A stretch of 64,000 bases of DNA from Minutocellus sp. GHC0000111 (GCA_977018835.1 OZ361260.1:1054001-1118000); one strand, 5' to 3'; positions 8,546 to 29,019 are shown, counted from the first letter of the stretch. Translations and numbers: made by a program. Notes: generated by a model from the letters alone, not told the origin.

Positions 8546-9343
8546 ATGTACAGGCAGCATGTACCTCTTCAGAAGTACATCATCGCCTTTACTGAATTTG
8601 AAATCGCTCGACGACCGAACGACGCTGTCGAGAGAGAAACTGGAACTGAGCTACAGGTTGTAATCGTCGATAGAGTCAGTTACAACATTCTTGCAAACGG
8701 GTCGGGGCTGGGGGGTTTGATATCGGAGAGGGAGTATGCAAACGATCTTTTCAGCGGATTGCATAATGGCCGCGCAGACAAGCAGAGCGGAGCTTTGGTA
8801 CTCGTCTTATTGCAGCAGCAACGTGTTGAGATTGCAGTCAGTAAGGATTTGAATCCCTACTTGGCATCACAATCTTATGGCACAACCTCCTATTGGTGCA
8901 CTGACATGCCCAAACGAGGGGCAGTGCCCATGTTCCAATCTGACTGCTACGGTGAATGGATATACAATGTAGTTGTTGGCGTCGCGAATGAAACACGAGC
9001 GATTGACGGCGGTGTCGCTTCGAAGCGGCCTTCTTCTACTGACGATATTCCTGATGCACTCGCTAAGATGTCATTGGTCGGGCTTCCTGGTGTTATTGTC
9101 TGGACCATTGGTTGTGACATCATTCACGATAGAATGTACCCCATGGGAGAGGGTTATGACTGTTCCCAGTGTGGAGGTAAAAAGTGGAAGAAAGTTGGCT
9201 CCGCCTGGGTCCAAGAGCCGACGTACGATACAGATGGCTTGGAGAAGATAATATGCAAGTGCTCGAGTTGTGGTTTTGAAGACTCTACGACTCGGAAAGT
9301 GTCAAAACTTTCGGGTTCTGACTTTAGCGGATCTAGACCTTGA
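8546..9343 (+). pseudogene. TPM (YgcG/Psb32-like) domain protein with C-terminal CxxC pairs; 5' end appears replaced
   Basis: ERETGTELQVVIVD...YANDLF...GALVLVLLQQQRVEIAVSKDL...PMFQSDCYG matches the TPM pattern; CSQC and CSSC motifs follow. The 5' part overlaps a duplicated non-coding segment. Confidence 0.6.
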
Positions 9344-9628
9344 CATCTGAATGCGGACTGTAAGACACACATGTAAGATTGTCGGCACGCGTGCCGAAAA
9401 ACGATAATCTATCTCCATTTACATCGTCAAATAAATACATGTACATCACGGAGTATTGCAGACGACACGTGTAGGAATTCCTATTTCAGCCATTTAATCC
9501 AGACACATTGGGCCCTTGAACCCAGGCTGTGCGCTTTGAGCGCAAGCCCACCAGTCCATGCTCATGCGATGTTCCAAGAAGTACATCATCGCCTTTATTA
9601 AATTTGAACTCGCTCGAGCCGAACGACG
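8571..9628 (+). repeat. Imperfect ~53-bp direct repeat pair (8571-8624 and 9577-9628)
   Basis: AGAAGTACATCATCGCCTTTA(CTG/TTA)AATTTGAA(A/C)TCGCTCGA..CCGAACGACG in both positions. Confidence 0.85.
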
Positions 9629-13105: not shown

Positions 13106-14333
13106 CTAGGCACAAGTTATCACATGCGTCGTCATCTTGAATTGACTACCAAAGTTCCCGAAGCTTTCTCGCCATCGCGGCATATCTTCAGTCGTGACAT
13201 GCGGCAAAGAAGTATGCACAACATCGGCACTGTAGTTGTAGAAATTTTTCATTGATAACACTTGGGGAAGAATTTCAACTGATGCGGGAGCTACAACAAA
13301 TACCTTTTCTTGCCCAACATCTTCAAGGCGACACTCGAGAGCCACATTGAATGTAAATCGAAGAGCAGTAACTCGGACATCTTTCAAATCGATGATATTG
13401 TGTCCGTTTGGCTGTGTGCCTGTATAGGCTGAACACACTTCTTCGCCCTTGGTGCACTGTGCGATAGAATCACGTTTCGACGTCCGCGTCAGAAAGGATG
13501 GCGGCATATATGTGTGGTGATAAATAAACATGGCTGGCCCAACAATCCCATTTTCGACAGCAACGCGGCTGCTGTCCAGTAAGCTAGGGACCACGCCCGA
13601 CTGATGTAACATTCCAAAAAACACCAAGAGCAGAGAATTGAAGATAAGCCGAAGGTACTGCAGCCATTGTCGTCCCTTGGTCAGATTTGTTCCATACAAA
13701 ACTACCAGGGGAACAATGACAGGGAGTAGAAACCGCGGTTCTTGGTGAGGAGCGCACGATAACACAAAAAGTCCGCTGCCAATGGCCATGCGGCACATCA
13801 TCCGGCCATTGTTGGGAGAAAGGGGGGCGCGTTGTTGCTGGTTTTTGCTGGGTCTCTTCCTTCGCAGCAGGACTCTCGAAACCATCGCGCCAACATCAGC
13901 ATAGTAGAAGAATGCCAATGGACCAAAGAGCATGGGCAGATTGACCAGAAGATGCGTGATGCGCGGATGAATTCCGTGGTCCCCAAGATTCTCAACATTG
14001 GAGTTGTAAAGCAATGCATTGAGTGGTGTTATGTAGTGCCCTCCAATCTCGGCTCGGTCGCCGATGCTGCCACCGTCCTGGGAAGTAGATAACGACAATT
14101 GCGAATAAAACTTTGTGTCTGCGGCTATGAAAGCCATTGTTGTGACCAAGAAGCCACACGCTGAAAGAACTCCATGTCCCAGTATCCTGCCTATCTTTCC
14201 CTTGTTGAACAGGTACATCAGCACAGGCGGCAGGGCGAAGAATGCAAAGGTGAATCTAACGAAAAGACCAACGCTGGATAGTGTTCCGACAAGTATCGAT
14301 CTTGCCATGCATCTGAGCGTCCCTTCGTTAGTT
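13106..14333 (-). pseudogene. PIGZ: GPI mannosyltransferase 4 (PIG-Z/Smp3, GT22), C-terminal part only, fused in frame to a foreign 5' end (ORF 13106-14458)
   Basis: GLFVRFTFAFF, TPLNALLYN..NL..HGIHPRITHLLVNLPMLFGP, LSCAPHQEPRFLLP, FGMLHQSGVVP, TYMPP. The N-terminal half is lost at the inverted-duplication breakpoint. Confidence 0.85.
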
Positions 14334-14652
14334 CGGAGATTGTTCAGCTCATCCTCCAGCGCCTCCCCCTGCTCCTGCATGTAACGGTCCTTAGCAGCAG
14401 CACGCCCTGCGGCAGTCTCTTGCTCCTTTGCTAAATCGTTGAGAGTACGGTCGCTCATCTTCGGACGAGGTAGAGCTTGTACGATTGTAGTAGATCGACT
14501 CTGAGCAGTTTGAAAAAGTGATTATCAGAAGCTCGTCGATTCGGCTGCATTTCAAAAAAAAAACATCGTCGGAGCGCTATTTTTCAAAATAAGAGCAAAG
14601 CACCTCGTTGCCAAGCTCCATCTCATCACCATCATCACCCTGCCCCTCAAGA

Positions 14653-15045
14653 ATGGCTGCAACCATGACCACCGATAGCAACTGGCATACCACCAGCAAT
14701 CGGCACGACATTGAGCGGGGTTTGGCCATCAGGAACGACTACAGGGACAACAGCACCATTGGTATCTGCGCCGCCCATCGTATCAGTGAAGACTCAAACG
14801 GACCGCACCGTACGTTTGAGATGTATGGCGGCCAGAGGAACGGCGGTATCATTAACAACTACACCATCTGGATGAATGAAGAGGGTATTCTTTGTGACTG
14901 CCCTCACAACCGGACCTGCAAGCATTGCATCTACGTTCTTCACTACCACGTCGGCGTCCCTATCCATCACCTCCGCTCTACCCAGATGATCAAGCAGGAG
15001 CTCCGCAGGTACTTCGATGAGAGATTCGTCGTCATCTCGGACTAA
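14653..15045 (+). CDS. Small SWIM zinc-finger protein (duplicate copy)
   Basis: YTIWM...CDCPHNRTCKHCIYVL (CxC-xn-CxH). Confidence 0.8.
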   Translation: MAATMTTDSNWHTTSNRHDIERGLAIRNDYRDNSTIGICAAHRISEDSNGPHRTFEMYGGQRNGGIINNYTIWMNEEGILCDCPHNRTCKHCIYVLHYHVGVPIHHLRSTQMIKQELRRYFDERFVVISD

Positions 15046-15121
15046 ATAGTGGCTGATGTGGCTGCACAATGAGTAGAGGAAGACAGGCACGGCGACATAG
15101 GAAAGGGATACATGTAGATCT

Positions 15122-16201
15122 TCAAGCATGCGATAAAGACTCTTCCGCCAAATAAATTGTGTAATCATTTGGATCCTTAACGCCCAGTATTGTTGTTCCA
15201 AACATGGCCGTAGGTTCCAGAAAGATTGCTTCCTTTCCTTGCTCTGTTGCCTTCAAAGTTTCCGCTGCAGCTTCTACACTGGGGGTCCCAATGACCAGAT
15301 GATCGAGCATGTTTCCCATAATCAGCTCTTCATTGGATTCGCCTTCGGTGGTGAATACCAGCATGGTCGATACTCCAAAGCCACTATCCTTGTAGCGCAA
15401 GCATAATAGATCACTATCGTTGGCCACCACCCTCATTCCCAGAACGTCGGTATAGAATTGCTCGGTAATCTCGAGTGGCGATAAATTGCCACCGTCTTCG
15501 CCATTGACGGCATCCTTGTCCAATGGCTTGGGTCGAAGACATAATCTCGCAAAGTAATCCCCAGGCCCGCTCGCTACGCGCCGTACTTCGATGTCATTGG
15601 GCTCTACCGCATCCTCGCCATCTTTCGCAATCTTTTCCCCAGCCGCTGCACCGATCAGATTGTTCTGAAAGTCGAGCAGCATGGACGTGCCCAAATACGC
15701 GAGACCATCGCCCTTCTCCAATGTTTCATCTGCCGGAAGAGACGAAATTTCCAATGCGAAACAGGAGTCCAGCTGATCGTCCTTGCCATTGCCAAGCGCG
15801 ACAAAGGCCGTCTCACCGCCGGCAGGTGACTTGTTGCGCTGCTTGACGGTGGCACCCTTGTCGACCCAGTAGTCCACCGTCTTGGCTACATCTGGCACGC
15901 GTAACATCATGTGTGAGAGTCGGTTGGACGACATGACGTTGTCGTCCTCCCCGTCATCGCTCCCGTCAGATTTGTTCTTATCGTCACCAATGTACATTGA
16001 TCGTTGTGAGTTGGATTGGGAGTACGACCATGGTCGTTCGACGAAGGGGCCTGATAATTGCGATGCGTCAGCGGACTTGACGCTCACGAGATCGGTGCGC
16101 GAGATGCCGATGCGTTGGACAAAGGCATCTGCCGATCTGATGGTCAGCAATGATACGATTGCAGTTATTCCAATTAAGCGTGCAGAAGTGCTCTTGACCA
16201 T
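15122..16201 (-). CDS. Glyoxalase/VOC-family protein, predicted plastid-targeted (duplicate copy)
   Basis: Signal peptide plus ADAF; LSHMMLRVPD, FYTDVLGM, LDHLVIG, VKDPNDYTIYL. Protein identical to 21572-22651. Confidence 0.85.
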   Translation of the reverse strand: MVKSTSARLIGITAIVSLLTIRSADAFVQRIGISRTDLVSVKSADASQLSGPFVERPWSYSQSNSQRSMYIGDDKNKSDGSDDGEDDNVMSSNRLSHMMLRVPDVAKTVDYWVDKGATVKQRNKSPAGGETAFVALGNGKDDQLDSCFALEISSLPADETLEKGDGLAYLGTSMLLDFQNNLIGAAAGEKIAKDGEDAVEPNDIEVRRVASGPGDYFARLCLRPKPLDKDAVNGEDGGNLSPLEITEQFYTDVLGMRVVANDSDLLCLRYKDSGFGVSTMLVFTTEGESNEELIMGNMLDHLVIGTPSVEAAAETLKATEQGKEAIFLEPTAMFGTTILGVKDPNDYTIYLAEESLSHA

Positions 16202-16337
16202 GGTGGCAAATTGCGATGCGAACGGAGGTGAATTGTGATGAGGACACGCACGGAGAGTGAACGCGGATGCTCTTTCTCTCCGTCGTCCCGTGACGCCTTT
16301 GCTGCAATGCGCCATACTGTAATGATAATATGATATG

Positions 16338-18938
16338 CACAGCCCCATCTCGTCTTGTTTCGCCAGTCGGATGAAGCGTTTTTCGGCAGAAGACGAACAC
16401 GTCACGAAGAAACCCACCAAAACCCAATCTCGTTCGTCACCCATTCTTTGACCGTCCAACACCATGGTGGTCCGTCGGCGTTGCGCCGGCGTATAACTAT
16501 ATTTTCGTACCAAATATGCATTCATTATCATGTTTGGATATAGTTGAAGCTTACTGTATCCTCAGATTGGCCTCCGCTGCGTATCAACGCCACGAACCAT
16601 CGGCCTACTTTTCCTCCATCTGTCGGCCGTTCGTTTCTCTGGGGTGGTGCCATTGCTCCGTCTTTGTGCTCGTCGTGCTCCCGTTGTGATGCCCCAGACC
16701 CTCTGGTACTTTCCCACGTTGTTGTTGATGATAAACTGCCGGGATTGCGCCGCACCCCCCGCATGACCGACTCTCGCTGATCCCGACCGATCGCATCCCC
16801 ACTCTCGACCTCCCGGAATTCCGACAATAATTTTGCGCCCGAGAGGAGACAGATAGTATTGGGATAAGTTTATGCAACAATCAACCCGACAAAGGGACTT
16901 TTTGGTCTGGGAGATAAATGGGTGAGTTAAGAAGGACGTGATGTGTTTGTTTGGGTGTGCTATTTACTTTTTTGCTCAATCGCGACACTGTTTGTAAAAG
17001 TTGGACCATGCAATTCATTTGTTGTTGTGTAGTAGCAGTGTAATTTCATTTTCTAATTTTATACATGCCCTGCTCCCACCTCTACATCCTCATCTCCATC
17101 GGCGGCCATCATGATCATTTGTTGGCGCTTGTCATCAGTTTCTGCTTTAACAGCTTCGGTCCTTGTCCTTTTCCTTGTTCTTGCCACCCGAGAGTTTCGC
17201 TCCCGCCTCTCCTCGACCTTTGGATTGGATGCCCTCTCCTCAGCCTTGAACTGCGCCGTCTGTTGGGCCTCATATCCCTTGACGCCCTGAGTCCGACGAT
17301 CTTCCTTAACGCCCTCTTGGTGGGCTCGCTCTACAAACGATTCGTCGAGCCAATAGATGCCGCCCCATCCATTCTTCACTAGCCAAATGTGTTGGTCCAA
17401 GATGTGATCTTCGAGTAAGTGCCACTTGGGCGTTATGCTAATGTCGATTGCCCGTGCTTGCTTGAGGGCACTTGCAATCAATTTTCAAGCTCTCTCACAG
17501 CCTTCTTTGCCTCATCATCCCATTTCATGTGCCATTTCAGAAACCTGGAATATATTGCGTCAAGAGTGTGGAGCAAATTAGAGCAAGCTTTGCAGAGCTC
17601 TTTGATGTCGTCATCCGTCATGCCATCTTCCTCGCGATTGTGCTCTAGGAGAGTTCCTTTGGTGGAGGTGTTATGGTGGATGAACTCTATTGTCCTTGGT
17701 TTCTTCTTGTTGTTGCCATCAGAAATATTAATAGATAAAGCTCTCCAGCATTCTGCCAGCACTGCCCTTATTTTACCTGAGTCGGCCGCCTCAATGCCGG
17801 CCTTTTTCAGGAAATGGAAGTGAGGGGCATCGTCATCCTCGGCATCATCGACAGCTCCCATCTCTGGCTCGCCATCACCGTGCTTCTGACGATTCTTCTC
17901 AAAGTACTGCTGCACATGCATGCTTCATGTGCAGCGTCCTCTCTTGCAATGTCAGCTTCGTCCTCATGACAGGGCACACAGTCCTCGTCTTCGTCGTCAT
18001 CGTCCTCACTGATCTCGCCGGCCTCCGTCGTGGTCAGGGTGCCCACCGTCCCAACATCGTCGTCATTGTCCCACCCATCGTCCTGGCCATTACACCCACC
18101 AAGGAACTTCTGGGCCTCGAGCAACATCTGCCTGTTGATTTCGTAGTCCATCGCCGCACATCCCACCGACATATGTGGTGCGACCGACTTGAGGAATGCA
18201 TTGCATGCCTTCGTCAAATTGAGCCGCGGCGGCGGCATTTCGAGGCGAAATTGTTGCTCGACCGTGACCATGTCGAAAGCCATCCATCCATCATCATGGA
18301 GAGCGTCGGCTGCACGAGGATTGATAGAACCGAGGCGAACAAATATGCTCTTTTTGTATGGGGTTCGCTGAACGTCGTCGGCAAGGCAGTGTCTTGATGC
18401 CATTTCATCCCATCCATTCTGGTTGTCTGTCCTCACAAAAAACACATCGCAGTCTTCGTGTTTCTTCTTCTTCAAACCCAAGATGCCCGCAGTGTGCATG
18501 ACGGCGCCGTACATGATGGGACTGCATCCCAACACATTCATCAAGGAGTCGTTGTTGCCGATGAAATTGTAGTAATGAAGTTCCTTTCTGCGAAGACGGA
18601 CGAGCAGTTCAGCCAGGCAGAGCGTCCTGCACCGCAATTCTGTCTGCGGTGTTGACCGCGGGATTGCGGCTGTTATTTTTTTTGCTCATGGAGAATTATG
18701 GATCGAGACCAACGGGAATATCACCAGGATGTCGGGAGTGCCTGGTTGGTCTCGTGCCGTAATTCTCCCACACCAGCAGCGCGAGATATCGCCTTCGTTC
18801 TGCACGTAGCGGCAATTTGAATTTTTGCCGCCATGGTGGCTCGCGTTGGGCGCGCCGGTCGGTTGCTTCGCGCGCCGGCCGGCCACTGAAAGTGCGACCA
18901 AAAGTATGCGAGACATCCGGCTGGCAGATGGTGCTGTG
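16338..18938 (-). mobile_element. Transib/Chapaev-like (CMC/RAG-related) DNA transposon, degenerate, with asymmetric TIRs
   Basis: Ends CACAGCCCCATCT-N11-GCCAGTCGGATG (16338-16373) and CACAGCACCATCT-GCCAGCCGGATG (reverse complement of 18914-18938) enclose a transposase-like ORF. Flanks ATATG and TCTTG do not form a TSD. Confidence 0.75.
17059..18689 (-). pseudogene. Transposase remnant with frameshifts (near 18640, ~17915, ~17480)
   Basis: C-terminal TPKWHLLEDHILDQ...GGIYWLDESFVERAHQ resembles the PKxHxxxxH...G...E-x3-E-x2-H helix carrying the third catalytic residue of Chapaev/Transib/RAG1-type DDE enzymes. The first two catalytic Asp are not recognisable. Confidence 0.65.
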
Positions 18939-19105: not shown

Positions 19106-19424
19106 CTTGCTGATGGCCGGCCGGGCGGGTTTGGATCTGATCACGCGGTGAGCTGTGCGGGGGGGGGTTTTGCGGTGCGACCTCTTTTTGCATGCAGCCT
19201 GCGCCAACGTCCGACCGAATGTCGAACGTCCGAACCGACTGTGGTGGAATCACACGCAGCCACTGTCTCAATACTTAGTAAAGTGGTGATACGCACTTCT
19301 TTTCTACCGGTCTTGCCACAAGAATATCTAATAAATAAACGCGGTTGGGTCCAAAGAAGAACTAAAACATCGGCGCCGACGCAATTCAAGCCTTGCCAAC
19401 CCAACCATCCGTCCACATACACCG

Positions 19425-21435
19425 CTATCAATCCTCGTGCAGCCGATGCTCTCCATGATGATGGATGGATGGCTTTCGACATGGTCACGGTCGAGCAACA
19501 ATTTCGCCTCGAAATGCCGCCGCCGCGGCTCAATTTGACGAAGGCATGCAATGCATTCCTCAAGTCGGTCGCACCACATATGTCGGTGGGATGTGCGGCG
19601 ATGGACTACGAAATCAACAGGCAGATGTTGCTCGAGGCCCAGAAGTTCCTTGGTGGGTGTAGTGGCCAGGACGATGGGTGGGACAATGACGACGATGTTG
19701 GGACGGTGGGCACCCTGACCACGACGGAGGCCGGCGAGATCAGTGAGGACGATGACGACGAAGACAAGGACTATGTGCCCTGTCATGAGGACGAAGCTGA
19801 TATTGCAAGAGAGGACGCTGCACATGAAGCATGCATGCAGCAGTGCTTTGAGAAGAATCGTCAGAAGCACGGTGATGGCGAGCCAGAGATGGGAGCTGTC
19901 GATGATGCCGAGGATGACGATGCCCCTCACTTCCATTTCCTGAAAAAGGCCGGCATTGAGGCGGCCGACTCAGGTAAAATAAGGGCAGTGCTGGCAGAAT
20001 GCTGGAGAGCTTTTTCTATTAATATTTCTGATGGCAACAACAAGAAGAAACCAAGGACAATAGAGTTCATCCACCATAACACCTCCACCAAAGGAACTCT
20101 CCTAGAGCACAATCGCGAGGAAGATGGCATGACGGATGACGACATCAAAGAGCTCTGCAAAGCTTGCTCTAATTTGCTCCACACTCTTGACGCAATATAT
20201 TCCAGGTTTCTGAAATGGTACATGAAATGGGATGATGAGGCAAAGAAGGCTGTGAGAGAGCTTGAAGCATTGATTGCAAGTGCCCTCAAGCAAGCACGGG
20301 CAATCGGTATTAGCATGACGCCCAAGTGGCACTTGCTCGAAGATCACATCTTGGACCAACACATTTGGCTAGTGAAGAATGGATGGGGCGGCATCTATTG
20401 GCTCGACGAATCGTTTGTAGAGCGAGCCCACCAAGAGGGCGTTAAGGAAGATCGTCGGACTCAGGGCGTCAAGGGATATGAGGCCCAACAGACGGCGCAG
20501 TTCAAGGCTGAGGAGAGGGCATCCAATCCAAAGGTCGAGGAGAGGCGGGAGCGAAACTCTCGGGTGGCAAGAAGAAGGAAAAGGACAAGGACCGAAGCTG
20601 TTAAAGCAGAAACTGATGACAAGCGCCAACAAATGATCATGATGGCCACCGATGGAGATGAGGATGTAGAGATGGGAGCAGGGCATGTATAAAATTAGAA
20701 AATGAAATTACACTGCTGCTACACAACAACAAATGAATTGCATGGTCCAACTTTTACAAACAGCATCGCGATTGAGCAAAAAAGTAAATAGTACACCCAA
20801 ACAAACACATCACGTCCTTCTTAACTCACCCATTTATCTCCCAGACCAAAAAGTCCCTTTGTCGGGTTGATTGTTGCATAAACTTATCCCAATACTATCT
20901 GTCTCCTCTCGGGCGCAAAATTATTGTCGGAATTCCGGGAGGTCGAGTGGGGATGCGATCGGTCGGGATCAGCGAGAGTCGGTCATACGGGGGGTGCGGC
21001 GCAATCCCGGCAGTTTATCATCAACAACAACGTGGGAAAGTACCAGAGGGTCTGGGGCATCACAACGGGAGCACGACGAGCACAAAGACGGAGCAATGGC
21101 ACCACCCCAGAGAAACGAACGGCCGACAGATGGAGGAAAAGTAGGCCGATGGTTCGTGGCGTTGATACGCAGCGGAGGCCAATCTGAGGATACAGTAAGC
21201 TTCAACTATATCCAAACATGATAATGAATGCGTATTTGGTACGAAAATATAGTTATACGCCGGCGCAACGCCGACGGACCACCATGGTGTTGGACGGTCA
21301 AAGAATGGGAAAACATAGAAAAACGGAAAATAGAAACGAACGAGATTGGGTTTTGGTGGGTTTCTTCGTGACGTGTTCGTCTTCTGCCGAAAAACGCTTC
21401 ATCCGACTGGCGAAACAAGACGAGATGGGGCTGTG
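19425..21435 (+). mobile_element. Second, 5'-truncated copy of the transposon; transposase frame open 19425-20692; long TIR at 21400-21435
   Basis: Same sequence family as 16338-18327, without the two internal frameshifts; lacks its own start and the short TIR. Confidence 0.75.
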
Positions 21436-21571
21436 CATATCATATTATCATTACAGTATGGCGCATTGCAGCAAAGGCGTCACGGGACGACGGAGAGAAA
21501 GAGCATCCGCGTTCACTCTCCGTGCGTGTCCTCATCACAATTCACCTCCGTTCGCATCGCAATTTGCCACC

Positions 21572-22651
21572 ATGGTCAAGAGCACTTCTGCACGCTTAAT
21601 TGGAATAACTGCAATCGTATCATTGCTGACCATCAGATCGGCAGATGCCTTTGTCCAACGCATCGGCATCTCGCGCACCGATCTCGTGAGCGTCAAGTCC
21701 GCTGACGCATCGCAATTATCAGGCCCCTTCGTCGAACGACCATGGTCGTACTCCCAATCCAACTCACAACGATCAATGTACATTGGTGACGATAAGAACA
21801 AATCTGACGGGAGCGATGACGGGGAGGACGACAACGTCATGTCGTCCAACCGACTCTCACACATGATGTTACGCGTGCCAGATGTAGCCAAGACGGTGGA
21901 CTACTGGGTCGACAAGGGTGCCACCGTCAAGCAGCGCAACAAGTCACCTGCCGGCGGTGAGACGGCCTTTGTCGCGCTTGGCAATGGCAAGGACGATCAG
22001 CTGGACTCCTGTTTCGCATTGGAAATTTCGTCTCTTCCGGCAGATGAAACATTGGAGAAGGGCGATGGTCTCGCGTATTTGGGCACGTCCATGCTGCTCG
22101 ACTTTCAGAACAATCTGATCGGTGCAGCGGCTGGGGAAAAGATTGCGAAAGATGGCGAGGATGCGGTAGAGCCCAATGACATCGAAGTACGGCGCGTAGC
22201 GAGCGGGCCTGGGGATTACTTTGCGAGATTATGTCTTCGACCCAAGCCATTGGACAAGGATGCCGTCAATGGCGAAGACGGTGGCAATTTATCGCCACTC
22301 GAGATTACCGAGCAATTCTATACCGACGTTCTGGGAATGAGGGTGGTGGCCAACGATAGTGATCTATTATGCTTGCGCTACAAGGATAGTGGCTTTGGAG
22401 TATCGACCATGCTGGTATTCACCACCGAAGGCGAATCCAATGAAGAGCTGATTATGGGAAACATGCTCGATCATCTGGTCATTGGGACCCCCAGTGTAGA
22501 AGCTGCAGCGGAAACTTTGAAGGCAACAGAGCAAGGAAAGGAAGCAATCTTTCTGGAACCTACGGCCATGTTTGGAACAACAATACTGGGCGTTAAGGAT
22601 CCAAATGATTACACAATTTATTTGGCGGAAGAGTCTTTATCGCATGCTTGA
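21572..22651 (+). CDS. Glyoxalase/VOC-family protein, predicted plastid-targeted; last codons supplied by the inserted cassette
   Basis: Two VOC domains; ends GVKDPNDYTIYLAEESLSHA*. Alternative 3' ends occur ~4.2 kb downstream. Confidence 0.85.
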   Translation: MVKSTSARLIGITAIVSLLTIRSADAFVQRIGISRTDLVSVKSADASQLSGPFVERPWSYSQSNSQRSMYIGDDKNKSDGSDDGEDDNVMSSNRLSHMMLRVPDVAKTVDYWVDKGATVKQRNKSPAGGETAFVALGNGKDDQLDSCFALEISSLPADETLEKGDGLAYLGTSMLLDFQNNLIGAAAGEKIAKDGEDAVEPNDIEVRRVASGPGDYFARLCLRPKPLDKDAVNGEDGGNLSPLEITEQFYTDVLGMRVVANDSDLLCLRYKDSGFGVSTMLVFTTEGESNEELIMGNMLDHLVIGTPSVEAAAETLKATEQGKEAIFLEPTAMFGTTILGVKDPNDYTIYLAEESLSHA

Positions 22652-22727
22652 AGATCTACATGTATCCCTTTCCTATGTCGCCGTGCCTGTCTTCCTCTAC
22701 TCATTGTGCAGCCACATCAGCCACTAT

Positions 22728-23120
22728 TTAGTCCGAGATGACGACGAATCTCTCATCGAAGTACCTGCGGAGCTCCTGCTTGATCATCTGGGTAGAGCGG
22801 AGGTGATGGATAGGGACGCCGACGTGGTAGTGAAGAACGTAGATGCAATGCTTGCAGGTCCGGTTGTGAGGGCAGTCACAAAGAATACCCTCTTCATTCA
22901 TCCAGATGGTGTAGTTGTTAATGATACCGCCGTTCCTCTGGCCGCCATACATCTCAAACGTACGGTGCGGTCCGTTTGAGTCTTCACTGATACGATGGGC
23001 GGCGCAGATACCAATGGTGCTGTTGTCCCTGTAGTCGTTCCTGATGGCCAAACCCCGCTCAATGTCGTGCCGATTGCTGGTGGTATGCCAGTTGCTATCG
23101 GCGGTCATGGTTGCAGCCAT
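22728..23120 (-). CDS. Small SWIM zinc-finger protein
   Basis: CDCPHNRTCKH motif; divergent from the large cassette gene with a ~195-bp spacer. Confidence 0.8.
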   Translation of the reverse strand: MAATMTADSNWHTTSNRHDIERGLAIRNDYRDNSTIGICAAHRISEDSNGPHRTFEMYGGQRNGGIINNYTIWMNEEGILCDCPHNRTCKHCIYVLHYHVGVPIHHLRSTQMIKQELRRYFDERFVVISD

Positions 23121-23315
23121 TCTTGAGGGGCAGGGTGATGATGGTGATGAGATGGAGCTTGGCAACGAGGTGCTTTGCTCTTATTTTGAAAAATAGCGCT
23201 CCGACGATGTTTTTTTTTTTGAAATGCAGCCGAATCGACGAGCTTCTGATAATCACTTTTTCAAACTGCTCAGAGTCGATCTACTACAATCGTACAAGCT
23301 CTACCTCGTCCGAAG

Positions 23316-26300
23316 ATGAGCGACCGTACTCTCAACGATTTAGCAAAGGAGCAAGAGACTGCCGCAGGGCGTGCTGCTGCTAAGGACCGTTACATGCAGG
23401 AGCAGGGGGAGGCGCTGGAGGATGAGCTGAACAATCTCCGCAAGGAGGACGTACAGTGGACCAAGAGCCCTGAGTGCCAGAAAGAAGTCGAGAAGGTTCG
23501 GGTGAGTCTTTTCTCTTCTCTGCCCCTGAGCCCCTGTCTCTGCAATACTATTATTGTTCATTTGCCCATAGACATCCTAACATAGTATCTTACTTCCTTG
23601 TTGCCATTCCATTTGCTACTGTACGTATTATTTTCGAACAGAATTACTTGGCACATTTGGACATGTATTTGTCCAGACGATACCAAACCAAGCCTTCTAC
23701 CACCAAGGCCGCTACGCCTACAGTTGATCCTGATGCCGAAATCGAGATCAAACCTCCTTCATCACCCCGTGTGAACGTTGTCGAGGCTCCATTCGTCGAG
23801 GCTCCACCCAATGAGACTCCTGTCGTCGAGACTTTCCCCTGCATGGACGTCGAGGCCCCATCGGTCGTAACCCCATCTCCCGCCGAGGCTCCTATCCTCA
23901 ACATTGACATTGAGGCTCCTGCCCATTCCCTCTCTGAGGTCGGTGTCGGGGAGGGCCGCGTTGAAGTCGAGACCTTTACCGACGCCGACAAAACCCACCA
24001 ATTCGCTCCTTGTTCCACTCCATCCTCTTCATCTGATGATTCCGGCTTCTCGATTGCCCCCCTCGTGGTCTCTGAAAATCTTCCTCTCGCCAAGGCCGAA
24101 GTCCCTCCTGTACCCACTGCCGCAGTGCAGCTTGGCTCTGACGATACTTCATTGGAACCTCCCTCTACCCACGTCATGGTCGATATCGAGGCTCCTATCG
24201 TCGAACCCACACCTCCTTCACCAGCCGCATCCTCTTTGTCGGCTGCTTGCATTTTGATTGCCTCCCATCATCATCAGGAGGAGGGCGACGTCGATGAATC
24301 AAATCCCTGCATCGTGTGCCATGCTTCCGTCCAGTCCAACATGGTCTATGATTGCTGCTCCTCGATGACCCTTTGTAGCGAGCAATGCCATCACATGGCC
24401 CATCAATGCCACGGCATGTCGGTCAGAAACGGTTGGGACTGCGACTCTATTGACTGGGCCCAGTACGTCGAGCCCAAGCCGCATTCAGCTGCCCTATCAG
24501 CTATCGTATCGGCTATGTCCCTCTGTCTTGGCTTCATCCTTCTTGCGACCGCCATTTTACCCCAGGAGGAGGTATCTACCACGCCGGTGCCACCTGGGCA
24601 GGACCCTTCGAGCCGAGATCTTTCTACCATTACCGCCGAGGACTCGTCCCTTGACGACAACCATGGCGCCCTGTACCAAGCCATGGCCCTCGTTGGTGTT
24701 GGCGTTGGTGTTGGTGTTGGTGTTGGCATCACTTGGAAGAATTATGTCTTGAGGCGGGTTGGCTACAACCTACAGAGTGGGCCCGAAGGATACCGCGCTG
24801 CAGTCGCTTTTGATGGCAGCAACATGCTGGCCCGTGGTAGAGGGTGCATGAGTGGGGGGCAGCGTCCCGTCGTAGGGCGAAACACCCCAAATTACCGCGG
24901 TGAGGCTTCCATGTGGTACGAGCGTCAGATAGTCTTCTTTGCATCAGAAGCAGACCGGGAGGGGATCGACTCATCCGATCTCAAGCCTTCTCATTCTTTC
25001 ATCACTGATTCCTTCAATAGACTCCAACAAGATGTTCCCGGTATCTCGATTGTCTACAACGTTGGTGGACAGTTCTACAAGTGTAGGGATGCGGCACTGA
25101 AGAGGCAGATAGTCGTTGACATCAAGCTAATTCGTGGCGATACGAGTCATGCTATTCGAACACACCTTGTTCCTGGAGCGGCTGGGACTCCTACTCCAGA
25201 CGTCAATAGCATCGTCTGCCTCGGCCTCGGTGCTGCAACTAGGACTCAATTTTATGGCGATGCTGGGAAGCAATATCAATTCCTGTGCCGCGAGAAGGCC
25301 GGCAACCTGGTTCGCCTCATGCTTGCAGCCAATGGCGATCCAGTACGTGATACTGTCAGCATCCCAACGGAGGCCGTGGAAGACGTCCTTGCTGTGTTAG
25401 AGTCGAACGACATTGGCATTGCGTGGAGGGACGAGGGCGCAGCTAACTTCTTTCCGCTTACCGATGACGGAAAGCGTGTCGCGATTCGCAGTCGCATTGT
25501 TTCTCAGACCAGCAGCATTACGAGCTCTAGGCTGGAGACCTACCGTTCCCCAGATGGATATCCCGATCCTGCCGCGGATATTGCGAGGCCCATTATTATG
25601 GCCTATCGCCGACGCGAAAACGCTGGGCAGAACCAGACAACTGTTGTTGTGCGAACCAACTTTTTCTCCGACGAGCCCTGTTGCAAGGGTGATGCGTGCA
25701 AGGGTTCCGGTTTTCTGACCTACAGAATGAACAACAAAATCCGAGCTCATGTTAACCCCCACAACAGCGCCGAGAGAATGTGCGTGTGGTGCTACGAAGC
25801 GCAGGAATGCCATCACAATGTGGTGTTCTTCAATTGCAAGCATAGCGAGTGCAACCCTACCCGTTGTACTAAGCATCAAAAGCCGAGCGATTGCTGCATG
25901 GAGTGCCGTCCTGCCCTTACCATTACAGCTCGTCGCAGACGACGCCGTAGAACCCTGTACAACGCACGCGTTGCCAGCGGAGTCATTACTGAGCAGAATG
26001 CACAGAACCTACTCCACGTGAGTGTTGCCCAGATCGAGGCTGAACTGGGATCAAGTGCTGAGCACTGGAGCAATCATCTTCTTGCAACTTTCAATGACAG
26101 GTACGGCACGTCCTTTGAAAGCCTCGGTGACATCGAACGAGCTGGCATCGATGTCCACATTGATGAGATTGTTGGTTGCTGCAACTGGGGATTCGACGAA
26201 CTTCGATACTGTTTCCATTGGAGAAATAGTCAGCTACTCAAAGCGGATGACAATCGGCGCAAAACCAAATATGTCAGCCCCCAGGAGAAACAAGCAAAGA

Positions 26301-26347
26301 AGGTCGAGATCGACAGGATTTTCCTCGCTGAAGAACTTTCCGACTAA
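23316..26347 (+). CDS. ~960-aa mosaic protein (P/E-rich repeats, Cys cluster, hydrophobic segments) with C-terminal Cys/His knuckles and an NCLDV-type HNH/EndoVII-like domain; predicted intron 23502-23641
   Basis: GTGAGT donor at 23502 and in-frame CAG acceptor at 23641. C-terminal CKHSEC..CTKH..CCMECRP, then LGSSAEHWSNHL..TF..VHIDEIVGCCNW..RYCFHWRNSQLLKADDNRRK. Confidence 0.7.
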
Positions 26348-26963
26348 AGTGCGCAGCAGGTAGATAGCGCCGAAAACTAAAAGACGAAGACTTAGATCAC
26401 TTTTTGACTACTGTAGTACAAACGCTAGCTACAGACGCTGCTCTCATATTTTTAGCTGACTATCTACACCATCCTTCCAACAACTCTGGGCGTTAAGGAT
26501 CCAAACAAAATTGTCTAAAAAAAAAAAAGAGGCATGACATATTTATGACATCATCATCTAAACCCCAAAAAATTACATATTTTAAAAATTTGCGACAAAT
26601 TTACTACATTTCCGCAACCCACCTCTCAACGAAATAGATGCCATATTGCTTAAGAGGGTTGGTTCCCCAAAGTAATATCCCCCCAATACGAAGGTTTACC
26701 TGAAAAAGCCCTACTTTTTTTCCACACGTAAAAAATGGCATATTTTTTACCTTACATTCAAAAATATATATTTTTTCTATCAAAACATCTAAACTTTGTG
26801 CTTCATGTATAAGATATATCTGGCGGAAGAGCCTGCGACAATCGATGATTAGCATTATACACAATTTATTTGGCGGAGGAGCTATCCGACTAAATTTAAA
26901 TTTAATTTTCAACTTATTTTGATCCAGGCATTTTGAAACCCAACATAACAAATCAATCTCACG

Positions 26964-28946
26964 ATGGATATTACTGCAATCACCACCGGCCTCGACGCCA
27001 TGACTCTTGAGAGCTGTGCCTCATGTGGCGAATCCAGCACAGCCCTGAAGAAATGTGCTTCTTGCAAGTGCGTCTGGTATTGTAATGTCGAGTGCCAGAA
27101 GGCCCATCGAAAGGCCCATAAGAAGGTATGCAGGCGCATCGGGAGGGAACTCAGGCTTTTTGCCGACCCACCTCCGCGTGAAGAATGTGCAATCTGCATG
27201 GTTCCCCTTCCTCTTTCACCACGCATGATTACTTTAGCGGGGTGCTGTGGGGCGCTGATCTGTTCCGGATGTGAAAGATCCCATTCGACTTGCGTGAGAG
27301 AGACAGGCCGCGATGCCACCTGCCCTTATTGCCTGAGAGCGACGAAGAAATTCTTTCGCAGTATCGTGCTAGAGCTGAGAAGAATGATCCCCGCGCAATT
27401 TGGAATCTTGCGACTTGTTACAAGGAAGGAAATTTTGGCTGCCCTGTCGACTTTGGCAAGGCGCTCGAGCTGTACGAGAGGGGCGTAGACCTATCCAGTG
27501 CCGATGCATGCTACGACCTGGGATCCTTTTACTGGGACGGCGATCACGGACTTCCCCAGGACGATGAAAAGGCAAGAATGTACTTCAAAAAAGCCGCCAT
27601 CGCCGGAGATTCCTATGCTCGATCAAATCTTGGCACCCTTGAGTGGCACCACGGCAACTTCTCCTTAGCTATCCGTCATTGGCGCATTGCTGCTGCGGCC
27701 GGAATGAAATCGGTGGTGGTGGTGTCGTCCCGCTCTTCTCGATCCAACGGATTTTTGCAGCTTCGACCAGATCTGCTACTTGACGTCTCAGCTTCATTAG
27801 CTTGATCTTGGACGAGGCATCACCAATTTGATAGAACTTCTTCGTGGCTCTTTTCTTCTCCTCTATTGCTGGTAGAAGTACTTCGGCGCTTAGCTCGAAC
27901 CAGCGCGGCGACGATTTGCGTTTATCACGAGATAGTACTTTGGCTCCTGCTGCATTCCACCTGTCCATCATGCTCTGAAGGTCGGTGGGGTCAAAATCGG
28001 TGGTTGGGTCGTTAATGATGGCTTCCAGCTCGACAATCAGCTGCGATCGAAGCACTGGATCTTTTTGGATGCGTGGGAAGTCAGCCTCTGGCGGCTTCTC
28101 CTCCCGTTCCTGCCTCTTCTTCTCCCTTTCCCATCTTATCCTCGGTAGGTCCTTAGGCAATAGCTTGGCTTCACTCCGGAGGTGCATGCATACACCTAGA
28201 TGGTCGGTGCTGGCTGCCGGGGCATATCTTCCTTGCCTTTCTGCTCTGTACAAGTATTTCCGTGGGATGACGATGTGATCAATGAAGTGGCCGGTCATCT
28301 TGGGAGATCTCCAAGTGCAAAAATATCCTTGGGCCCACATGAGTGCCGAACATAGTTTGTGCTTGGCCATGAACGAGGTGAAGAGAGTGCCATTGCGATT
28401 TGTCGGCCGGTCTAGTCCATATGGACCAATTGGGCTCTCTCTTAGAGCGTCGCTGCCCTCTTCTTCTTCGTCCTCGGCCTTGCTGATTCCCACTGACCCA
28501 TTGATATCGGCGCCGATGATTGGGATGCGGCCCTCTTGCTTGCACCCATCGAGGACCTTCTTTTCAAGCTCTTCCAGTACTTCCTCGTGTTGCTCTGCTG
28601 AACATGATGATGTGGGCATATATAACGATGTGACCCGGTATTGTAGTATCCTCCCTCTCGAGTCCTTCCAATTTAGATCCAGCGACATGTAACGAGCGGT
28701 TCCTGATAATAAACCTGATCCGATAGGCTCGGTGGTGGAGGAATGAAATCGTGCGTCAACAAACTCGATGAATGTTTTCAAATGGGTCTGATCAGTAAGA
28801 GCGAGCTCGAGGAGTCAAGACGAGCATGGAACGAGGCCTCCAAGGACATGTGGAGCGAGGACAGAGATTCATTTGTTGAGGACGAGATAAAGCGTGGCGA
28901 AATCAGCAAAGACGTTGAGTACGTTGTGGGGATTGGCGCAGACTGA
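26964..28946 (+). pseudogene. MYND zinc finger + RING + Sel1-repeat gene, frameshifted (~27335) and interrupted by a LINE fragment
   Basis: CASC..LKKCASCKCVWYCNVECQKAH..HKKVC; ECAIC..CCG..IC..C..CPYC; Sel1 repeats. The frame resumes after the insert at GMKS|CVNKLDECFQMGLISK. Confidence 0.88.
27713..28739 (-). mobile_element. Non-LTR retrotransposon fragment (APE/EEP endonuclease plus linker) with 12-bp TSD
   Basis: SLYMPT, IIGADINGSVG, GPYG..NRNG, TW..IDHI, STDH motifs; GGAATGAAATCG at 27701-27712 and 28740-28751. Confidence 0.88.
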
Positions 28947-29019
28947 GACAACAAGAGCAGCACGCTGTTATTCTATAACTCTGGTTCTATTATGAATCTG
29001 CTTTTATTTATATATCATC

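Follow-up and report, generated by a model that had tools for sequence, protein, structure and literature searches.

The stretch of DNA analysed here, called the window, comprises 64,000 nucleotides (nt) of the genome of Minutocellus sp. GHC0000111 (GCA_977018835.1 OZ361260.1:1054001-1118000), and all positions are counted from its first letter. The locus in question consists of a gene for a glyoxalase-fold protein, a pair of cargo genes behind it (one SWIM-like, the other ending in a predicted HNH-like nuclease domain) and four short displaced versions of the end of the glyoxalase gene, referred to as remnants R0 to R3. Its location is eukaryotic and nuclear, since the genes around it encode Utp21, PEPCK, MYND/Sel1 and DegP proteins and the cargo gene carries a spliced GT-AG intron. 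The targeting-like N-terminus of the glyoxalase and the marine origin of the runs containing the gene suggest a diatom. The features of the locus are as follows, with an asterisk marking a stop codon.

21572-22651, plus strand: host gene, glyoxalase-fold protein of 359 amino acids (aa); Pfam PF00903, E 1.4e-6; targeting-like N-terminal peptide
22578-22633, plus strand: last conserved codons of that gene (TTILGVKDPNDYTIYLAEE), the presumed target region and the sole part of the gene copied downstream
22728-23120, minus strand: SWIM-like zinc-finger gene of 130 aa that runs towards the glyoxalase end; half of the mobile module
23316-23501, plus strand: cargo exon 1, 62 codons; intron at 23502-23641
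23642-26347, plus strand: cargo exon 2, giving 963 aa with exon 1; Asp-Glu at 26162-26167
26318-26347, plus strand: R0, IFLAEELSD*; its 10 codons close the cargo gene in frame and supply the stop
26345-26475, plus strand: non-coding flank, placed behind the glyoxalase end in the module-free contig from a relative, organism C (joint 22633 to 26345)
26478-26505, plus strand: R1, TTLGVKDPN, 26 of 28 nt identical to 22578-22605
26506-26807, no strand assigned: AT-rich insert separating R1 from R2; parts of it recur elsewhere in the genome
26808-26852, plus strand: R2, YKIYLAEEPATIDD*, 5 changes in 24 nt against the gene, 4 of them silent
26858-26893, plus strand: R3, YTIYLAEELSD*, 23 of 24 nt identical to 22610-22633

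The locus is real and not an assembly artefact. Short-read contigs, assembled independently, cover 21481-23440, 23411-26516 and 26779-27325, and contigs from runs of two studies cross the gene-SWIM, nuclease-R0-R1 and R2-R3-MYND junctions. Within the AT-rich stretch, 26517-26623 is bridged by no contig among those listed, which is the one point in favour of an artefact. Every remnant lies inside independent contigs tied to its neighbours, and both protein ends are encoded in a second assembly as well, so that the chance of an artefact is very small.

Alleles and junctions were surveyed in contigs from eight runs, four of them at species level (three DNA-like from two studies, one RNA). The runs used include X1, X2, X5, X6 (RNA), X9 (RNA), X15, X16 (organism B) and X18 (organism C).

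The glyoxalase gene and its stranded ends

The glyoxalase protein has 31 homologue matches, its own cluster counted. None of its relatives was found in the prokaryote genomes searched, and the viral contigs searched contained no close relative of the glyoxalase, the cargo or the SWIM-like gene. The gene reads ...GVKDPNDYTIYLAEESLSHA and stops at 22651, with the end YTIYLAEE-SLSHA. Contig alignments of two relatives break off at 22633, which is also the limit of conservation. SLSHA* is the end present in RNA contigs of two studies, which answers the question, raised in the first-pass annotation, of which end is used; these contigs cross the stop into the downstream DNA (22211-22713 in X6, 22311-23058 in X9). 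It should be mentioned that RNA libraries can contain DNA; X6 nevertheless also shows the cargo intron spliced. In the same two runs the remnants are without cover and no joint leads from the gene to a remnant, a lack of cover that is no proof of silence.

The C-terminal motif is matched by 48 retrieved relatives, a redundant set in which three belong to the species of the window. Thirty of the 48 stop at the second Glu position without any tail, ten add P and three add PSD. The glyoxalase of the closest other species (P0002) ends YAIYLAEEPSD*, and other relatives also end IYLAEEP.... Because most of the motif-matching relatives stop without a tail, the tail beyond the second Glu appears largely dispensable, and the earlier statement that the element repairs the gene was too strong. 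On the same comparison, the remnant tails LSD* and PATIDD* look closer to the ends of the relatives (PSD*, P*) than the present SLSHA* does.

The stop at 22651 and the coordinates of three remnants (R1 to R3), as given by the first-pass annotation, all hold on recheck. R0 is a fourth version of the glyoxalase end beyond those three, the cargo open reading frame ending ...KVEIDR-IFLAEELSD*. Compared with R3 it carries 8 base changes, yet the meaning is kept in 9 of 10 codons (P~0.001 under neutral substitution). The IFLAEEL sequence is peculiar to the copy in the window, since the closest cargo homologues end EIDGEIR*, EIDQVV*, EIDQV* or EID[RGT]VSNSD*, with no IFLAEEL, and a contig of a relative ceases to align at 26313. 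R1 contains an exact match over 20 nt (26486-26505 to 22586-22605). For R2, which has its own tail and stop, the mainly silent divergence noticed earlier is borne out, 7 of 8 residues surviving 5 changes (P~0.03 under neutral substitution). R3 includes an exact 20-nt match (26858-26877 to 22610-22629) that extends to 23 of 24 identical positions at 26881, and it shows a non-silent change at 26874 in run X5. R3 is likely the oldest resident end. Over the AT-rich insert depth is raised and contigs break, with a loose end at 26653; the insert lacks a clean terminal inverted repeat and is likely a later transposon relic that split a single copy into R1 and R2.

All four stranded pieces come from the last 20 conserved codons of the glyoxalase; they are 28-45 nt long, with spacers of 130, 302 and 5 nt between them. 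Chance is excluded as their source by dinucleotide shuffling. I[YF]LAEE is observed three times in 22652-26963, whereas not one of 2000 shuffles contained it even once, and a 20-nt match to the last 80 nt of the gene likewise arose in 0 of 2000.

We considered whether the remnants could be the last traces of decayed tandem glyoxalase paralogues, an origin that the first-pass annotation had itself raised and that older paralogues, expected to differ mainly silently, would in part explain. A relaxed tblastn search with six family members revealed no other glyoxalase trace in 22652-29000, hence nothing past the last 20 codons, and three paralogues would each have to lose all but the same few codons. 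This origin is very improbable. The mostly silent differences of R0 and R2 (the two P values above) indicate that these pieces were coding elsewhere and are not decayed local copies. It is likely that the stranded copies are former gene ends pushed aside by successive insertions.

The cargo pair and its HNH-like domain

The SWIM-like gene and the 963-codon gene are arranged head-to-head. The former has four homologue clusters at 59-65%, and its ratio of non-synonymous to synonymous substitution (dN/dS) is ~0.27-0.31 against two metagenome copies (L002/L004). Its CxC...CxH motif is invariant in five aligned rows; the earlier naming of a SWIM gene thus stands as to the motif and finds no match among Pfam profiles. 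In the larger protein a Pro-rich N-terminal part is followed by a conserved middle of unknown fold, a Cys-rich region and a C-terminal HNH-like domain. Two homologues match it over its full length, at 76% and 51% in residues 330-901 of exon 2, and its intron (23502-23641, GT..AG) is spliced in RNA run X6. For the 572-residue conserved region the predicted model has a mean confidence (predicted local distance difference test, pLDDT) of 36, and the Atlas structure search with the middle region gave no match above 0.83. Neither cargo gene matches Pfam or PHROGs (for exon 2, none at E<=0.5), a PDB sequence search with the cargo returned nothing useful, and no transposase, recombinase or reverse-transcriptase match from Pfam or PHROGs was found in either gene. 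Terminal repeats of the cassette beyond chance level were not found. The two gene stops share a short SD* inverted repeat, matching in 8 of 9 nt, which was considered as a terminal repeat and rejected, the ends of other homologues being different.

The last 190 residues of the cargo match 26 proteins, most of them with a HIDEIIPC...YCWH.LNSQ motif, and their predicted model reaches a pLDDT of 88.7. Fold matches to giant-virus proteins go up to E 2.6e-6 (the best rows being unnamed), named HNH rows follow from E 3.5e-3, and in the Atlas the domain matches Nucleocytoviricota clusters. On these model-based comparisons the last domain of the cargo appears to belong to a giant-virus HNH-like family and is a predicted nuclease, in agreement with the HNH-like gene that had been annotated in the cassette. 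Asp-Glu at domain positions 78-79 is nearly invariant in 23 aligned rows. HNH (beta-beta-alpha-Me) nucleases typically use a His general base; in the candidate domain the usual His is replaced by Glu, and by our reading of the motif the Asp-Glu would occupy the general-base position. NucB is described as active with Asp-Glu at that position (PMC5758888). A further protein, P0044 (1093 aa), combines an N-terminal RING finger with a Glu-type HNH-like domain of the same kind close to its C-terminus, and may represent a second capture in eukaryotes.

Alleles of the site

In the four species-level runs there is no contig branching at the gene end, no joint that skips the cassette and no empty allele. 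All four carry a one-base loss at 23833, after which the spliced frame would stop 11 codons later, and the predicted protein P0064 ends early in another frame. The cargo frame of the window is open through the splice site, and we therefore read the window as carrying an intact cargo allele, a sequence error there being possible.

Organism C differs from the window by 4-9% in the glyoxalase gene, and its SWIM-like and glyoxalase genes are about equally diverged (8%). One 658-nt contig of this organism, at depth 57.5, joins 22633 to 26345 and skips 3711 nt, that is, both cargo genes. The depths are 55.8 for the SWIM contig, 44.8 for a 4065-nt cargo contig and ~107-117 for the glyoxalase gene. 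Considering that a module-free contig and the cargo pair each occur at half depth, organism C is likely a filled/unfilled heterozygote at the glyoxalase end; the arithmetic of depth and overlap is consistent with two contigs that leave the gene at 22556. Module-free alleles were foreseen in the first-pass annotation, and one relative provides such an allele in the form of a contig lacking the pair. The structure predicted for it was not found. An empty allele ending LSD* directly before the MYND gene had been expected; no joint to 26882 exists in the eight runs, and the contig of organism C joins to 26345 instead, probably with ~440 other letters between.

Cargo of organism C aligns in the Pro-rich part and leaves the nuclease part without cover, run X15 has the same nuclease part with another N-terminal part, and organism B yields three short, near-identical pieces alone. 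Judged by these alignments, the cargo appears to vary among relatives. As to excised circles, no backward joint across the cassette occurs in the contigs of the eight runs, and it is noted that contigs drop rare forms.

The module-free allele could also be derived, the resident pair having been deleted in some lineages and the remnants being by-products of rearrangement unrelated to the nuclease. The region is indeed unstable (a high-copy transposon, an inverted duplication, repeat relics), and the equal divergence of the SWIM-like and glyoxalase genes in organism C fits shared descent of the filled allele. Local copying, however, cannot give silent-biased copies with separate tails and stops, and a single stretch of 56 nt is the source of all the pieces. 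Coincidence would have to account both for the fusion of R0, in frame, with the nuclease gene and for the viral parallels described below, and we judge this course of events to be rather unlikely.

The pair at other sites

A metagenome scan for the pair yielded four loci (L001-L004), in three of which (L001, L002 and L003) a SWIM-like gene stands head-to-head with a cargo homologue. L001/L002 and L003/L004 share sequence to ~9 nt past the SWIM stop and then pass into different neighbourhoods, with a GH123 fragment and a DUF5522 gene beyond the divergence. Because the pair sits at two unrelated sites in another eukaryote, it is mobile, yet not always at glyoxalase. This supports the earlier proposal of a mobile module in the DNA that separates the gene from the remnants. 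The companion proposal, that the family targets this conserved coding site, is not supported as a family-wide rule by L001-L004, at least on the SWIM side.

Signs of recombination among module copies were seen in these sequences. In L002:1-111 the cargo has an internal deletion, by which its N-terminal part adjoins a Cys-rich part that has diverged. Between L001 and L003 the cargo starts are almost the same, with SWIM genes only 87% alike.

The occupation of other sites bears on an alternative without homing. A transposon-like or virus-derived module with loose targeting could have inserted once here and duplicated a 24-nt target (22610-22633 / 26858-26881); its right end would have captured the other pieces while it resided earlier at glyoxalase genes of other strains or species, or when breaks at the spot were repaired. 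A near-exact 24-nt direct repeat does bracket the 4.2-kb insert, the sequence shared between the two unrelated sites ends ~9 nt after the SWIM stop, and the ~300-aa conserved middle region, to which no fold is assigned, could hide an integrating activity. Such a module accounts better than homing for the other sites and for the identity between the gene and R3. It lacks a transposase, recombinase or reverse-transcriptase match and terminal repeats beyond chance, however, and the cargo is present at single-copy depth in the genome of the window (module copy number being judged from contig depth alone), unlike an active transposon. In addition, the silent-biased R0 and R2 need repeated contact with glyoxalase ends, which amounts to a site preference. 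We consider this alternative unlikely as a whole, though it deserves more weight than the other alternatives discussed here.

Relatives of the nuclease in viruses

Fifty viral loci (L005-L054) encode a nuclease domain 29-40% identical to that of the cargo, with the same Asp-Glu motif. In 41 of them the nuclease gene lies tail-to-tail on the closing codons of a recurrent neighbour, which is DUF5824 (26 loci), a YqaJ-like gene (13) or a gene of 85-90 aa (2). Stranded ends could be looked for in 36 loci, after exclusion of four with short flanks, four without a converging gene and six with other or doubtful neighbours (one of these YqaJ-like). A stop-ended copy of the target end lies beyond the nuclease at p<0.05 in 13 of the 36, distributed over four sequence groups and two targets. 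In a thinned set, scores of at least 28 were reached by 3 of 19 loci (opposite-strand controls 0/19, cross-target controls 0/212) and scores of at least 22 by 5 of 19 (controls 1/19 and 1/212). The remnant of L048 is ~30 codons long; that of L037 ends YTADKKM*, with most of the matching codons silently changed. In the algal-virus-like contigs L048 (2250-3703), L037, L028 and L007/L008 the HIDEI-type nuclease overlaps the end of a conserved gene, and a recoded stranded end lies on the far side.

In a 38-row tree, in which bootstrap values were not settled and branches are long, the viral proteins group by target and the domain from the window falls in a separate six-row clade (97/84). The viral case is therefore a parallel at the level of the family and does not identify a donor.

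A homing reading of the locus

In viruses, members of the HNH-like nuclease family represented by the cargo leave gene ends stranded, and homing fits for this reason; nuclease-driven homing was one of the two options offered by the first-pass annotation. We lean slightly towards a homing-type selfish element that works like the WHO elements of yeast or the mORFs of fungi while being a member of neither group. Alleles without the module would be cut by the nuclease within or close to the last conserved codons (22578-22633), and the break would be mended from the occupied allele, supplying a new in-frame end and stranding the old one downstream. The rounds may have followed the order R3, then R1 and R2 together (later split by the AT-rich repeat), then R0, with diverged alleles or species involved in the separate rounds. 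R0 would have become the stop of the nuclease gene itself, its amino acids being kept while its silent sites drifted. A life cycle of homing genes that includes fixation followed by decay is described in a recent preprint (bioRxiv 10.64898/2026.08.13.744650). In the species of the window the element looks fixed and decaying, as expected from the 23833 frameshift in all four runs and the absence of an empty allele from them.

Several points weigh against homing. We infer the cutting, the biased inheritance, the repair route and the order of rounds. The remnants, at 28-45 nt, are short for homologous repair in comparison with the ~400 nt found in WHO clusters, and the spaces between them contain no older nuclease genes. 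Between the YTIYLAEE DNA of the present gene and R3, 23 of 24 positions agree, so that there is no resistance-type recoding against R3; a plain 24-nt target duplication accounts for the gene/R3 pair equally well. In organism C the module-free contig is no clean empty allele, the ~440 unseen letters in its joint being deduced by arithmetic. No glyoxalase occurs on the SWIM side of L001-L004, the side that their sequence covers. As for the enzyme, matches to solved structures are weak (best Z 3.4), with HNH domains in several of the top rows, and His-to-Glu mutants of ColE7 and I-PpoI are described as almost dead (PMC5758888). On the viral side, identity is only 29-40% and the viral proteins form a clade of their own, none of the 11 YqaJ-linked loci shows a remnant, and the recurrent neighbours may have been inherited rather than re-targeted.

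A broader form of the homing reading is more tentative. It would posit a two-gene homing family, with a Glu-type HNH and a SWIM-like protein, which is of giant-virus ancestry, has colonised algal nuclear genomes, overwrites last codons, swaps modules and targets, and has left a multi-round record at the glyoxalase gene. We regard this as possible but doubtful in its entirety.

Surroundings of the locus

The left part of the locus, up to 23440, belongs to a 4-kb inverted duplication, whose other arm is listed here.

14334-18327, minus strand: inverted duplicate arm, 98.6% identical to 19425-23440

This arm holds a second glyoxalase gene with the same SLSHA* end, a second SWIM-like gene and the start of cargo exon 1; no nuclease exon and no remnant were found in 14334-18327. 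On its outer side cargo exon 1 is fused in frame to an Alg9-like mannosyltransferase fragment (13106-14333). Transposon copies lie at the centre of the duplication, the two arms are identical over 1766 nt around the glyoxalase gene, and in X1 and X2 the contigs show a branch at 23440. That another assembly has the inverted duplication too is suggested by proteins from a 3.28-Mb contig there.

A very high-copy transposon-like element occupies ~19334-21436 and, mirrored, ~16330-18330, with a summed depth of tens of thousands vs ~200. It has no Pfam match; its KWHLLEDH...ESFVERAH motif is presumably transposase-like. Spliced or deleted forms of the element occur in RNA, and in one X2 contig the sequence upstream of 21452 is a different one, which suggests an insertion polymorphism. 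To the right of the remnants, the MYND and Sel1 gene (26964-27805) is frameshifted in the window, and X2 and X5 carry 13 extra bases at 27331. The Sel1 gene is truncated by a repeated relic at 27669-28814 (minus strand) without Pfam match, which we take to resemble a LINE-type endonuclease domain. This endonuclease/phosphatase-like relic was considered as part of the element and rejected; it lies outside the remnants and is repeated separately. Further away, a 54-nt direct repeat (89%) is found at 8571-8624 and 9577-9628, near two gene starts.

Relation to known systems

Bacterial islands that enter the 3' ends of genes by tyrosine or serine recombinases leave the replacement end and the displaced end as a direct repeat. 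The present locus likewise has a replacement end plus a displaced end. It differs in that no recombinase match exists in the cassette and several pieces are silently diverged rather than exact attachment (att) cores, so that the bacterial analogy drawn in the first-pass annotation does not carry over.

In the literature found, the nearest described nuclear case is that of the WHO elements of budding yeasts. According to two sources (PMC7282813; bioRxiv 10.64898/2026.08.13.744650), homing of these elements replaces the 3' end of FBA1 and shifts earlier ends rightward. As in the cases of PMC7282813, the present system is nuclear and places a predicted nuclease gene behind an intact host gene, here with a SWIM-like gene between. 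Also common to the two are downstream 3' fragments of the host gene (four here, and far shorter) and decay of the element. WHO alleles are described as occupied or unoccupied; organism C has a module-free contig and half depth, with the ~440 letters in the joint. The two systems differ, as far as those descriptions go, in the enzyme (LAGLIDADG/intein-like with a zinc finger in WHO, HNH-like with a SWIM-like partner gene here), in the target (the middle of FBA1 versus the last codons of a glyoxalase-fold gene) and in scale (fragments of ~400 bp and clusters of up to nine nuclease genes versus 28-45 nt and one nuclease gene).

The mORFs of fungal mitochondria are described for atp6 of Allomyces and for atp6, atp9, cox2 and nad3 of Glomus (PMC3630166). 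They too bring a new C-terminus and an endonuclease open reading frame, with the displaced native end directly behind, encoding the same protein in diverged DNA, and some of the duplicated ends are short, 51 nt in atp9 (PMC3630166). In the cases described there they are mitochondrial, use LAGLIDADG or GIY-YIG enzymes and leave one displaced end per gene, whereas the present system is nuclear and HNH-like, has a spliceosomal intron in the nuclease gene and shows several stacked ends. The displaced end of an mORF is described as nearer to relatives; here the tails LSD*/PATIDD* resemble PSD*/P*, yet the YTIYLAEE DNA is 23/24 identical to R3. With the free-standing HIDEI-motif proteins of large algal DNA viruses the cargo shares a homologous domain, the Asp-Glu pair, the overlap with the last codons of a target and, in some loci, recoded stranded ends. 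The viral proteins differ in that they are mostly 250-570 aa, lie antisense to their target and have no SWIM partner that was found.

The locus probably works like WHO elements and mORFs, yet it differs from both in enzyme family, from WHO in target and from mORFs in compartment. Literature searches on displaced C-termini and on HNH/SWIM elements in diatoms or algal nuclei returned no title describing such an element, and none on homing by viral HIDEI-motif HNH-like proteins was found by title. Nuclear group I introns encode His-Cys box enzymes, which do not fit a LAGLIDADG-only view of nuclear homing. Such a view is given in the preprint, in which the known nuclear homing nucleases are LAGLIDADG enzymes and WHO elements are considerably rarer than inteins or introns (bioRxiv 10.64898/2026.08.13.744650).

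If the homing reading is true, a WHO-type system would exist outside the yeasts and outside the LAGLIDADG enzymes, with an undescribed viral counterpart, and end-replacing nuclear homing would have evolved more than once. The stacked ends offer ready-made candidate sensitive and resistant targets. Such a case would also give a function to an unannotated nuclease family that is common in algal viruses, and it would suggest a route by which selfish genes of viruses settle in algal chromosomes.

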